A DNA stretch of 64,000 bases from a virus (IMGVR_UViG_3300032116_000102:1-64000); one strand, 5' to 3'; positions 22,699-51,965 are shown, counted from the first letter of the stretch. Notes: generated by a model from the letters alone, not told the origin. Program-made: numbers and translations.

Positions 22699-22917
22699 AT
22701 GTCTGATTACACCGACGAACAACTCCTTGCCATGGCCATGGCAAACATTGGTGAGTACATCACAGATAACTCACCTCAATACATCCTGATCGAAGACGAT
22801 CCTCGTAATGAGGATGATTACGACACATGGAGTTACGGTACTGAACCGTTACCTCATGATCACACTTGGCACTCCACATCGATTGATGTAGAGGTAAGCC
22901 CAAGTCAGGCCGACTAG
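22699..22917 (+). CDS. Small acidic protein
   Basis: ORF track. Confidence 0.55.
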   Translation: MSDYTDEQLLAMAMANIGEYITDNSPQYILIEDDPRNEDDYDTWSYGTEPLPHDHTWHSTSIDVEVSPSQAD

Positions 22918-22936
22918 TCCAACGGCAGAGACAAGC
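22908..22936 (+). pseudogene. Orphan 5' fragment of tRNA-Leu (acceptor 5' strand plus D arm)
   Basis: GGCCGACTAGTCCAACGGCAGAGACAAGC parallels the tRNA 5' end at 23306-23336; compensatory D stem GTC/GAC vs GCC/GGC. Confidence 0.7.
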
Positions 22937-23323
22937 ATGAAACTCTATGGTCCATACACTCGCAAAGATGGCAGACAACATGTCATTCTTTACGAGAACG
23001 GCAAACGCAAAACAGTAAGCTATCCCAAGTATTTACTTGAGACAAAGCTTGGTCGATCTCTTTTGCCTCATGAAACCTGCGATCACATTGATGGAGATCC
23101 TTTAAACAATTCTTTAGATAACTTGCAGATGCTATCCAGATCGGATAACGTACGCAAGCACGCAGCTCTTTCACCTGCAGAGCTGGGGACTTTCACTTGT
23201 CCTATTTGTTTGTGTTCATTTACCAAACGAATGCATAGCACTAGGCACAATCGAAAGCAAGGAAAACGTGGACCTTATTGTTCACGTTCATGCGCAGGTA
23301 AAGCTGGCCGACTAGCCCAATAG
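22937..23323 (+). CDS. HNH homing endonuclease
   Basis: CDHIDGDPLNNSLDNLQMLSRSDNVRKH; C-terminal CPIC...YCSRSC Zn finger. Confidence 0.85.
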   Translation: MKLYGPYTRKDGRQHVILYENGKRKTVSYPKYLLETKLGRSLLPHETCDHIDGDPLNNSLDNLQMLSRSDNVRKHAALSPAELGTFTCPICLCSFTKRMHSTRHNRKQGKRGPYCSRSCAGKAGRLAQ

Positions 23324-23383
23324 GAAGCAGGCAAGTGACTTAAAATCACTCCAGTCCCGGTTCGAATCCGGGGTCGGCTACCA
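23306..23383 (+). tRNA. trnL: tRNA-Leu(TAA), CCA encoded, short variable loop
   Basis: Acceptor GGCCGAC/GTCGGCT, anticodon arm AGTGA-CTTAAAA-TCACT, T arm CCCGG-TTCGAAT-CCGGG, ACCA end. Confidence 0.9.
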
Positions 23384-48981: not shown

Positions 48982-49836
48982 ATGGTTGCTAAACTGAATA
49001 CATCAGATCCTTGGATTCAAGCCAAAGAAGAGCAACCGGAAGTAATGCGGTCGATTAATCGGACCGCAGCCAGGATAACACTTAACGGAAAACGTCACTA
49101 CACAACTCCGTTACCCACTGGACCTGCACCGTCCGTAACCACTATCATCAGCGAGACAGCTTCCGAAGCAAACAAACGGAAGCTTGAAATGTGGTCGAAA
49201 GCAAATCCAGGTGTCAAAGAACAAGCAGCCGAGCGGGGCACTGCCATTCACTATGGTATGGAGCAGTACCTCAAAGGGAATAAAACGCCGGAAATCAAAG
49301 ATGAATATGCGGACTTTTGGGCTGGCATGCCGGCGATTCTGGATCAATTCCAGGAAATCCTTTGGGCCGAGTCTCCAGTTCTGGATAAGTTTGACTTTAC
49401 TATTGGTGCTGATGACGTTGCTCGCGTCTGGGGTTGTGACGGAGAAGGACGCGCTTGGGCTGGTGCTCCTGATATTATTGCTGTGGCTAACAATAAGCTG
49501 ACGCTTGCTGACTTAAAAACCAGCGTCAAACCCTATAGCCGCAAGTGGCCTAAAGACCTGGAAAAAGGTTCGCCTGAATGGCGTGATCTCCTCGGGGGTC
49601 ATCTTAAATTCAAAAAGACTTGCAAACAACTCGCTGCGTATGATATAGCTATTACCCAGACATTGGGAATAAAAGTTCAACAAGCAGCAATCCTAGTTTC
49701 TACACCAGTAAGAACTCAGGTTTTTAAAATATCACGCAGGTTCTTAGACTCTTTGCATGAAGATTGGTACAAAATTGTTGAAGAGTATTATGCGCAAATA
49801 GAAAATTGCAATGCGTATGACCCTGATCTAATTTAA
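48982..49836 (+). CDS. PD-(D/E)XK exonuclease
   Basis: PSVTTII, RGTAIH, AGAPD, LADLKTS, QLAAY. Confidence 0.85.
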   Translation: MVAKLNTSDPWIQAKEEQPEVMRSINRTAARITLNGKRHYTTPLPTGPAPSVTTIISETASEANKRKLEMWSKANPGVKEQAAERGTAIHYGMEQYLKGNKTPEIKDEYADFWAGMPAILDQFQEILWAESPVLDKFDFTIGADDVARVWGCDGEGRAWAGAPDIIAVANNKLTLADLKTSVKPYSRKWPKDLEKGSPEWRDLLGGHLKFKKTCKQLAAYDIAITQTLGIKVQQAAILVSTPVRTQVFKISRRFLDSLHEDWYKIVEEYYAQIENCNAYDPDLI

Positions 49837-49839
49837 AAA

Positions 49840-50334
49840 ATGCAAAACAAAGTCTGTACAATTTGCAAAGAATTAAAAGATTTGTCTTGCTTTAGCAAAG
49901 CGGGCAGAAAAGACGCTTTACGTAGTAATTGTAAAACTTGTGACGCTAAAAAGTATAAAGAATGGAAAAATAAAAATAGAACAAAATATCTACGTAGTTC
50001 TAGTAATTCTGGATTAAAAATACGATATGGAATCGGGCTTGAAGAATATGAAAAACTTTTAGCGCAGCAAAACCATAGCTGTAAAATTTGTGGAACAAAA
50101 AAACCTGGCAGAAAAGATGTTAAAAGATTTGCTGTAGATCATTGCCATAAGACAAACAAAATCAGAGGCTTGCTTTGCATGGCATGCAATACTGCAATAG
50201 GACTGTTAAACGAAGACCCAAAACTTTTTGATGCTGCTCAAAACTATTTGAGAGAGCATCGAGCAGACCCTTGGTATGAAAGTACAACAGGCGGCAATCT
50301 TGGTATCGACGCCTGTTCGTACTCAAGTCTTTAA
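49840..50334 (+). CDS. Endonuclease VII-family homing endonuclease
   Basis: YGIGLEEYEKLLAQQNHSCKIC...VDHCHKTNKIRGLLCMACNTAIG; AT-rich. Confidence 0.88.
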   Translation: MQNKVCTICKELKDLSCFSKAGRKDALRSNCKTCDAKKYKEWKNKNRTKYLRSSSNSGLKIRYGIGLEEYEKLLAQQNHSCKICGTKKPGRKDVKRFAVDHCHKTNKIRGLLCMACNTAIGLLNEDPKLFDAAQNYLREHRADPWYESTTGGNLGIDACSYSSL

Positions 50335-50443
50335 GATCTCCAGGCGATTCCTGGATTCCTTACGGGATGATTGGCTCAAGATCGTTGCCGAGTACTACAC
50401 CCAAATTGAAAATTGTGGTGTTTATGACCCTGATCTCATTTGA
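50258..50443 (+). pseudogene. Displaced duplicate of the exonuclease 3' end (61 codons plus stop)
   Basis: Translates IEQTLGMKVQQAAILVSTPVRTQVFKISRRFLDSL...YDPDLI*, 52/61 aa identical to 49651-49836. Confidence 0.9.
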
Positions 50444-50941
50444 TCACTGGAAGCCGTAGTTCATGTTGCTGCCCAGTCCAATATTTGGAGTGGTGCCGAG
50501 TCCAATATTGGGTTTGGTGCCAAGGGCGGAACCGGTTTGTGCAGCAACCGACTGCGAACGCATCTGGTCCAGCATGTTCATGTAGCTGGACTGAGTACCA
50601 GTGCTGCCGCCAAGCTGAGTTGGTTTCGCTGCGCCACTGGGAGTTGGCTTGGTAGGAGCAGGACGCTTGGGCGCTGCAGTTGCACCGGTCGTTGGACGTG
50701 CTCCTGCTTTACCTTTGTTTTCTACTGCGCGACGCACTGGTTTTTCAGCCGGGCGAGCCGCTGGTTTTGGAGTACGTGCAGTAGGTGCCGCAGCTTGGCG
50801 TGGAGCTGGGGTGCCGGCTTTGGCAGTTGGGCGCTTGGCTTCTTGTTTTTTCGTAGGTGCTGGCATTGCTTTCTTGCCTGCTTTATCAACAGCACCCTTG
50901 ACAGGTTCTTTGCGTGCTGCGCCGGTACGCTTCTCTTTCAT
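50444..50941 (-). CDS. Lys/Ala/Pro-rich basic (histone H1-like) protein
   Basis: Composition; C-terminal LGT.PNIG repeats; TATAAT box upstream. Confidence 0.6.
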   Translation of the reverse strand: MKEKRTGAARKEPVKGAVDKAGKKAMPAPTKKQEAKRPTAKAGTPAPRQAAAPTARTPKPAARPAEKPVRRAVENKGKAGARPTTGATAAPKRPAPTKPTPSGAAKPTQLGGSTGTQSSYMNMLDQMRSQSVAAQTGSALGTKPNIGLGTTPNIGLGSNMNYGFQ

Positions 50942-51376: not shown

Positions 51377-51965
51377 AGTCTCATAAGACTCGCTAATTCC
51401 GGTAAAATTTAAGGACAGCGGTGCGTCAACACCCTGCCCACGGCAACCACTACCACTGGTTACATGCATAAACTAACTGATTTTAAGGTCTGTCGCAAAG
51501 GCTTGCATCAATACCCTTTAAACCTAAGGCAATGCCCTGAGTGTAGAAAAATAGCTAAAGAAAAATGGTACAAAAATAATAAAGAACTTTGTAAAACATT
51601 TAGAAAAACTTGGAACGAAAAAAATAAACAACAAAGAAACAAATTAAATCAAAAATGGAAGCAAAATAATAAAAATAAAATAAACGCAATAAATTCTAAA
51701 CGTCGAGCAAACAAAAGAAAGGCTGTCCCTGCTTGGGCTGATTTAAAAGAAATATTTAAAATTTATCAAGAGGCTGTAGAGCTCACCAAAAAAACGGGTG
51801 TTAAGCATGAAGTTGATCACATATATCCGCTTCAAAATAAATATATGTGCGGTTTGCACGTACAAGAGAACTTGCAAATTTTAACAAAGAAAGAAAATCT
51901 TGCAAAAGGTAATCGAACTTGGCCTGGGCAGCTTGATTGCCAAAGAGAATAGTCTCATAAGACTC
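51377..51965 (+). mobile_element. HNH insertion bounded by 15-bp direct repeats AGTCTCATAAGACTC
   Basis: Repeats at 51377-51391 and 51951-51965 flank an AT-rich HNH gene. Confidence 0.65.
51464..51952 (+). CDS. HNH endonuclease
   Basis: HEVDHIYPLQNKYMCGLHVQENLQILTKKENLAKGN. Confidence 0.85.
   Translation: MHKLTDFKVCRKGLHQYPLNLRQCPECRKIAKEKWYKNNKELCKTFRKTWNEKNKQQRNKLNQKWKQNNKNKINAINSKRRANKRKAVPAWADLKEIFKIYQEAVELTKKTGVKHEVDHIYPLQNKYMCGLHVQENLQILTKKENLAKGNRTWPGQLDCQRE

Follow-up and report, generated by a model that had tools for sequence, protein, structure and literature searches.

We identified, in the exonuclease gene of a cyanophage genome, a composite that is very probably a terminus-replacement homing element, in which a nuclease gene with an Endo VII motif is accompanied on its upstream side by a variant copy of the last 60 codons of the gene it occupies. 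The DNA analyzed (IMGVR_UViG_3300032116_000102:1-64000; the whole stretch of 64,000 nucleotides is called “the window” here) is part of a metagenome-assembled viral record of 85.6 kb. Among cultured phages, the freshwater Synechococcus phage S-EIVl is nearest to it; the two share their gene neighbourhood up to the primase, and the source is an S-EIVl-like freshwater cyanophage. Our analyses confirmed the anatomy of the locus, the foreign character of the gene end in use, the native character of the end that lies displaced behind the nuclease gene (termed the “orphan”), the reality of the junctions, and the presence of the composite in three diverged backgrounds. Relatives for comparison came from IMG/VR (80 listed), with more from two further scans; each scan listed 80 of about 440 related loci.

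Anatomy of the exonuclease locus

The exonuclease gene (48982..49836, + strand) is a complete ORF of 284 amino acids and a chimera of a host-derived 5′ part and an imported 3′ end. It matches phrog_298 (“exonuclease”) over residues 18-270 with an E-value of 6e-30, and shares 64% amino acid identity with its homologue in S-EIVl. Pfam returned no family for this protein and a sequence search of solved structures returned no match; its identification as an exonuclease depends on phrog_298 and the names of the tblastn hits. As the original prediction had reported, the last 62 codons of the gene, stop codon included (49651-49836), recur ungapped and in the same frame at 50258-50443. The two copies are identical at 52 of 61 amino acids (85%), and over codons 225-284 they differ at 54 of 180 nucleotides and 9 of 60 amino acids. 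The compositional difference that had been noted between them was also recovered. The in-use end is AT-rich (GC 0.35, GC3 0.27), like the endonuclease gene (GC about 0.29-0.37), and the orphan (GC 0.46, GC3 0.48) resembles the 5′ part of the exonuclease gene (GC 0.48, GC3 0.44).

The 5′ part, codons 1-224 (48982..49653, +), is 88-91% identical at the nucleotide level to that of five relatives that have no endonuclease gene (L005, L006, L007, L010, and L017), and all but 2 of its 672 bases occur in the 13 closest relatives. The imported 3′ end, consisting of codons 225-284 and the stop codon TAA (49654..49836, +), is a low-GC allele with T225 and I230 (“type B”). It shares 66-74% nucleotide identity with the ends of the closest relatives, from which 14 of its 180 bases are absent, so that private bases are strongly concentrated downstream of the breakpoint (p = 2e-8). 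The maximum-likelihood breakpoint falls after gene position 672, equivalent to window position 49653, which is the boundary of codons 224 and 225. Dot alignment places the left junction (49651..49656, +) at the same boundary, the putative position of the homing site. The imported end is nearest to the in-use ends of L163 (84%) and L166 (81%) and to other ends associated with an endonuclease; we found no donor closer than 84% for the in-use end or 85% for the endonuclease gene. An origin of the imported end from a foreign donor would fit its low GC content.

The orphan (50258..50443, +) comprises native codons 224-284 and the stop codon TGA, detached from the gene and recognized by its match to the functional ends of relatives. 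It is 89% identical in nucleotide sequence to the ends of L005, L007, and L017. The proposal that the orphan should correspond to the true 3′ end of endonuclease-free relatives was borne out: the ends of the five relatives named above agree with the orphan at 84-89% of positions and with the in-use end at 68-71%. The orphan is free of internal stop codons, with one stop located two codons before it and its own at 50441-50443. None of its bases is absent from the functional ends of relatives, and thus the event looks recent, as had been suggested. The breakpoint at 49653 and the resumption of native homology at 50258 together describe a native gene with an insertion of about 604 bases at a single point. 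The inserted segment (49654-50257) consists of foreign codons 225-284 followed by the endonuclease gene.

Given that the record was assembled from a metagenome and that an endonuclease-free strain occurs in the same samples, the layout could in principle be a chimera of two co-occurring strains, or else a tandem duplication that diverged in place. Logan contigs from runs X1 (2019) and X6 (2024) cover 49527-50800 with 0 differences, and in run X3 (2017) two Logan contigs together bridge both junctions. Error-free contigs from independent runs and years thus span both junctions, which indicates that the layout is not an assembly artefact, and the composite also occurs in other assemblies. Divergence in place conflicts with the grouping of the two copies with different relatives and with the 0 private bases of the orphan. 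We rejected both possibilities as scarcely credible. The same runs contain, at similar depth to the element allele, a contig with an uninterrupted exonuclease allele, which continues leftwards from 50261 into the codons preceding codon 225, with orphan-like sequence directly after. Thus, possible recipients coexist with this phage.

A splice-free homing cassette that invaded the exonuclease gene had been proposed, and this description is supported: the ends of relatives match the orphan, the breakpoint is at 49653, and no Rfam intron was detected (no family match across 49300-50800 at E-values up to 1). A TAA stop codon separates the exonuclease gene from the endonuclease ORF. We rejected introns of groups I and II given the lack of an Rfam match, and an intein because the stop between the genes precludes an in-frame insertion. 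A promoter and terminator scan between the exonuclease gene, the endonuclease gene and the orphan gave nothing above background.

Directly after the orphan stop codon is an opposite-strand ORF (50444-50941, -) of 165 amino acids that is rich in Lys, Ala, and Pro and lies in DNA of high GC content (0.55-0.60). It has no Pfam or PHROG family and is poorly conserved or absent in relatives.

The Endo VII-motif nuclease

The endonuclease ORF (49840..50334, +) encodes 164 amino acids and its ATG is located 3 nt past the TAA of the exonuclease gene. Its earlier assignment to the EndoVII group was upheld by matches to Pfam Endonuclease_7 (PF02945; E-value 2e-22, residues 59-138) and to phrog_2633, “endonuclease VII” (E-value 4e-37, residues 2-141). 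Residues 1-140 (49840-50259) are homologous to the proteins of relatives, which end at about residue 141-146, and residues 141-164 (50260-50334) are a read-through into the orphan in another frame.

The DHHRN family is defined by an N-terminal CX2-4C, a central DHxH, a conserved Arg, and a CX2C followed by Asn; these motifs lie in the C-terminal half of the protein in the endonuclease clade and in the N-terminal half in the resolvase clade (PMC6083498). In the window protein, CKIC, DHCH, IRG, and CMACN align with C23/C26, D40 H41 H43, R54, and N62 of T4 Endo VII (1e7d) and with Hpy99I. The motif set is complete and is located in the C-terminal half, behind a zinc-finger-like N-terminus. By these motifs the ORF is a predicted F-CphI/DHHRN-type homing endonuclease.

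The Pfam and PHROG names speak of “recombination endonuclease VII,” and the protein might accordingly be read as a Holliday-junction resolvase of the phage, not mobile and unrelated to the duplication. We consider this highly improbable. The gene is found beside the exonuclease gene in 8 of 81 viral-contig relatives and is absent from the other 73, among the matches listed, and it always adjoins a replaced gene end. The placement of its motif behind a zinc-finger-like N-terminus is that of the endonuclease clade (PMC6083498).

With catalytic and zinc residues complete, a dN/dS of 0.04-0.06 and a sporadic presence, the endonuclease looks active. The loss of its stop codon and the 24-amino-acid out-of-frame tail might impair the version in the window. 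In L165 (704-1126), the second zinc-ligand motif reads CMAYN instead of CMACN, a change from Cys to Tyr, and the nuclease may have been inactivated in that population.

Association of the imported end with the nuclease

A tree of 3′ ends puts the in-use end into a clade of 11 members that includes 7 of the 9 endonuclease-bearing genomes (Fisher p = 3e-6), and the orphan among the ends of the closest backbone relatives. Four changes (E225T/S, M230I, a silent change in codon 250, and R259H) are common to all three genomes that carry this endonuclease lineage and are seldom seen in others. Those at codons 225 and 230 are within 18 bases of the junction. The in-use end had been described as recoded. 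It does carry many silent changes, but the difference is more than synonymous, as E225T/S and M230I are linked to the endonuclease. The linkage of end and nuclease is not strict, as the endonuclease-free L009 and L039 also have type-B ends.

All endonuclease-bearing genomes show a drop in 3′ identity relative to their nearest 5′ neighbour, for example from 97% (5′) to 75% (3′) for L072 and L060, from 95 to 79% for L016 and L037, and from 91 to 66% for the window and L006. The left boundaries of the replaced ends vary, as expected of co-conversion tracts. Repeated replacement of this kind would explain why diversity and mosaicism in the exonuclease gene are greatest at its 3′ end. We had expected unusual synonymous conservation around the insertion site and found none; nowhere in the gene do third positions vary more than here.

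Among 56 unique endonuclease-free relatives (codons 221-265), the pairwise 5′ and 3′ identities are weakly correlated (r = 0.38), which resembles the pattern at FBA1 under repeated homing of WHO elements (see below).

Recurrence of the composite

The layout described for the window is present there but not unique to it. Diverged copies of the composite occur in L163-L165 (three samples, probably of one study) and in L166 (another data set), all with the same order (5′ part, type-B end, endonuclease gene, 61-codon orphan) and the same junction positions. These composites were found via a protein-based metagenome scan only; scans of IMG/VR for exact matches to the right junction (24 nt) and to the start of the imported end (23 nt) gave no match. 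Nucleotide identities of L163-L165 and of L166 to the window are, respectively, 85 and 78% for the endonuclease gene, 84 and 81% for the in-use end, and 83 and 86% for the orphan.

At the right junction (50255..50262, +), the last homologous codon of the endonuclease gene, CAT, overlaps orphan codon 224 (ATC) by 2-3 nt, and the position is identical in L163-L165 and L166. The orphan of L163-L165 begins with ATT GAG and supplies the TGA stop codon of the endonuclease gene. In the window and in L166 it begins with ATC GAG, and the endonuclease frame continues for 24 codons.

The nearest sequence to each orphan is the functional end of an endonuclease-free relative, and these relatives are also among those closest to the 5′ part of the same genome. 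Constraining the three orphans to form a single clade lowers the log-likelihood by 41 units (AU p = 0.049, which is borderline with 180 columns). Orphan-to-orphan dN/dS is 0.04-0.06 at a dS of about 1, like that of the working parts of the gene, with no stop or indel. As this substitution pattern is of the coding type, the simplest interpretation is that each orphan functioned as a gene end until the arrival of the element in its backbone. This late function suggests repeated homing, and homing into more than one backbone is likely from these comparisons. Among the relatives collected, we saw no cassette that recurred nearly unchanged in a second, different backbone, nor a near-isogenic partner with an empty site, the best endonuclease-free relative being 91% identical in the 5′ part.

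It is also conceivable, although unlikely, that a single illegitimate repair accident in an ancestor produced the composite, which has since been inherited vertically and was lost from the endonuclease-free relatives. The identical junction position in all composites does imply a single origin of the junction, and both the 2-3 nt of microhomology on its right side and the loss of the endonuclease's own stop codon would be natural products of such an accident. Moreover, the window and L163 differ by about the same dS (1.1-1.3) in the 5′ part, the in-use end, the endonuclease gene and the orphan, and plain vertical co-descent would equally give equal dS across segments. However, orphans with so low a dN/dS and without stops or indels at a dS of about 1 are unlike neutral pseudogenes, and both the orphan and the 5′ part are nearer to endonuclease-free relatives (dS 0.4-0.6) than to the other composites. 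Vertical inheritance would also need many precise losses, each restoring a pure native end, and the endonuclease itself is under purifying selection.

The low orphan-to-orphan dN/dS might instead reflect selection in place, if the orphan is kept for a function of its own, either as a 55-amino-acid fragment starting at the ATG of Met230 (50276) or as an element with a role in regulation or recombination. All three orphans retain the Met230 codon, and in L163-L165 the endonuclease stop codon lies about a dozen nt before this ATG. In the window and in L166, however, the endonuclease frame crosses the Met230 ATG. The shorter orphans of L019 and L028, described below, comprise 21 codons without a start codon, and the L028 copy has amino acid changes. 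L083 and L027 have the endonuclease and no orphan, and a 55-amino-acid tail of a nuclease fold seems unlikely to act alone. We consider a function of this kind very doubtful.

A second Endo VII lineage, with 33-36% amino acid identity to the window protein, occurs at the same place in L016, L019/L021, L028, and L072. In L019 (4818-4883) and in L021 and L028 (5227-5292) the last 21 codons form the orphan, within which the endonuclease frame again terminates. Amino acid changes were detected in the 21-codon orphan of L028. These short orphans represent an independent terminus replacement at another position of the exonuclease gene.

Further Endo VII-like genes, 31-36% identical in amino acid sequence to that of the window, occur in some relatives on the opposite strand, roughly 2 kb upstream from the exonuclease gene (L027/L030 1652-2080, L072 1907-2335, and L037 1178-1588, all -). 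This phage group carries many Endo VII-like nucleases.

Proposed mechanism of terminus replacement

We propose that the nuclease cuts endonuclease-free alleles at or near the boundary of codons 224 and 225, just past the conserved ..KQLAAYD.. block, and that, in a co-infected cell, an element-bearing phage supplies the template for repair of the break. Homology arms would be provided by the gene's 5′ part on one side and its native 3′ end on the other, with the mobile unit copied in between. The imported end would then complete the gene of the recipient, whose own end would be displaced downstream as an untranslated orphan. The imported end is presumed to be uncleavable by virtue of E225T, M230I and the many silent changes. 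What we infer beyond the anatomy of the locus is where the nuclease cuts, that the imported end is immune, and that the element is still mobile.

More distant relatives with the same endonuclease lineage (L083, L027/L030, and L168-L173) have a type-B end and the endonuclease gene, and no orphan. In L083 and L027, whose neighbourhoods were mapped, the DNA located behind the window's orphan is missing as well. One-sided illegitimate repair with a microhomology join has been described in T4 intron homing where exon homology is limited (PMC2988022). The 2-3 nt shared at the right junction and donors without the downstream DNA fit such a one-sided repair. The first composite junction probably arose in this way, from a donor endonuclease that was free-standing behind a resistant end, as in L083 and L027. 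The composite would have been created once; afterwards both of its flanks would be native, and the unit could home like an intron.

Our confidence is evenly divided on a broader reading, according to which the composite is a self-contained, intron-like unit that is still spreading among co-occurring lake cyanophages. Under this reading, repeated homing by at least two Endo VII lineages at two positions of the exonuclease gene, together with an HNH gene at tRNA-Leu, would make gene ends evolve rapidly as mosaics, and terminus replacement would be a general third way for phage homing endonucleases to reside inside genes, beside introns and inteins. If so, the orphan would be the right-hand homology arm, with codons 224-225 of the target even supplying the nuclease stop codon in L163-L165.

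Comparison with known homing elements

An analogy with gene-end replacement in fungal mitochondria (Allomyces atp6) had been drawn, and it holds. Equally close analogues are the yeast WHO elements, and the mORF hybrids of Glomus belong here too. WHO elements at FBA1 in Torulaspora and Lachancea combine a nuclease gene with a resistant 3′ end, and the mechanism was shown experimentally (Coughlan et al., 2020, PMC7282813). The phage composite resembles them in having a nuclease gene with a 3′ target-gene end upstream of it, and in the persistence of the old end as a downstream fragment and homology arm. Both also show a sharp drop in identity at a fixed position and discordant histories of the 5′ and 3′ parts. 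The WHO nuclease, however, is an intein-like LAGLIDADG/zinc-finger protein, whereas that of the phage has an Endo VII motif. The host here is a lytic-type cyanophage, in which exchange would occur by co-infection and not by meiosis. There is one element per locus rather than a tandem cluster, and the orphans remain intact. For WHO, cleavage was shown to be allele-specific; the phage element is known from sequence alone.

Gene hybrids involving mORFs have been reported for atp6 of Allomyces macrogynus and for atp6, atp9, cox2, and nad3 of Glomus (PMC3630166). As in the phage, a foreign C-terminus and an endonuclease ORF are inserted and are followed by the native C-terminus. The native copy is 91-98% identical to close relatives in mORF hybrids and 84-89% in the phage, and the inserted copy 64-81 and 66-74%, respectively. 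The mORFs differ in that they reside in organelle genomes and belong to other endonuclease families. Several of them are in phase with the host gene, whereas in the phage a stop codon and 3 nt precede the endonuclease ORF.

Among phage nucleases, F-CphI of cyanophage S-PM2 (PMC6083498) is likewise the product of a small free-standing gene and has CxxC, DHxH, R, and CxxC-N in its C-terminal half, a likeness in the motif. F-CphI targets psbA beside a group I intron (collaborative homing), and, unlike for the composite, no gene-end replacement has been described for it. The seg and mob genes of T4-type phages (PMC2988022) share with the composite a free-standing nuclease gene, and their intronless homing or marker exclusion, the co-conversion of variable flanks and the microhomology junctions offer further parallels. 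The T4 nuclease genes, in contrast, are intergenic, and no stranded duplicate of a target end is mentioned for them (PMC2988022).

We found no published phage case of gene-end replacement in the literature searched; subscription journals were mostly outside its coverage, and absence is thus unproven. Two candidate precedents were rejected, one from a Xanthomonas phage (PMC2248197), which concerns duplications of tail-fibre domains, and one (PMC10448857) that concerns duplications inside nuclease genes and not target gene ends. The logic of the homing element is known from yeast and fungal mitochondria; the phage host and the Endo VII-type nuclease set this case apart.

The composite indicates how a homing endonuclease with a free-standing gene can take up a site within a conserved phage gene with no need of an intron or intein, and it may explain stray gene-end fragments found beside nuclease genes in phage annotation. 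The first base of an orphan would mark the likely homing site from the sequence itself, which provides a candidate target for a DHHRN nuclease; F-CphI is the sole DHHRN nuclease characterised in the literature covered. Over several years, alleles with and without the element were present side by side in the same lake samples, a natural setting in which gene-drive dynamics could be followed.

Other nuclease genes in the window

In the region 22908-23383 of the window, an HNH_3 gene (22937-23323, +) runs into the start of tRNA-Leu(taa) (23306-23383). The original prediction had seen the same strategy at this insertion as in the exonuclease gene. A fragment resembling the first ~30 nt of the tRNA is indeed present at 22908-22940, where it overlaps the ATG of the HNH gene. 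The local alignment score of the fragment was reached by 2 of 500 shuffles. It would fit a 5′-end replacement at the tRNA gene.

We also noted a second free-standing HNH/Endo VII-like gene (51464-51952, +) of 162 amino acids, with matches to phrog_26577 and phrog_1035. It lies in an island of low GC content (0.24-0.36), flanked by two small ORFs, on the upstream side of the primase gene, and is absent from this site in L005 and most relatives. At the same site, L039 has a homologue with 64% amino acid identity, and L017 has an Endo VII-type gene. This region looks like a second endonuclease hot spot.
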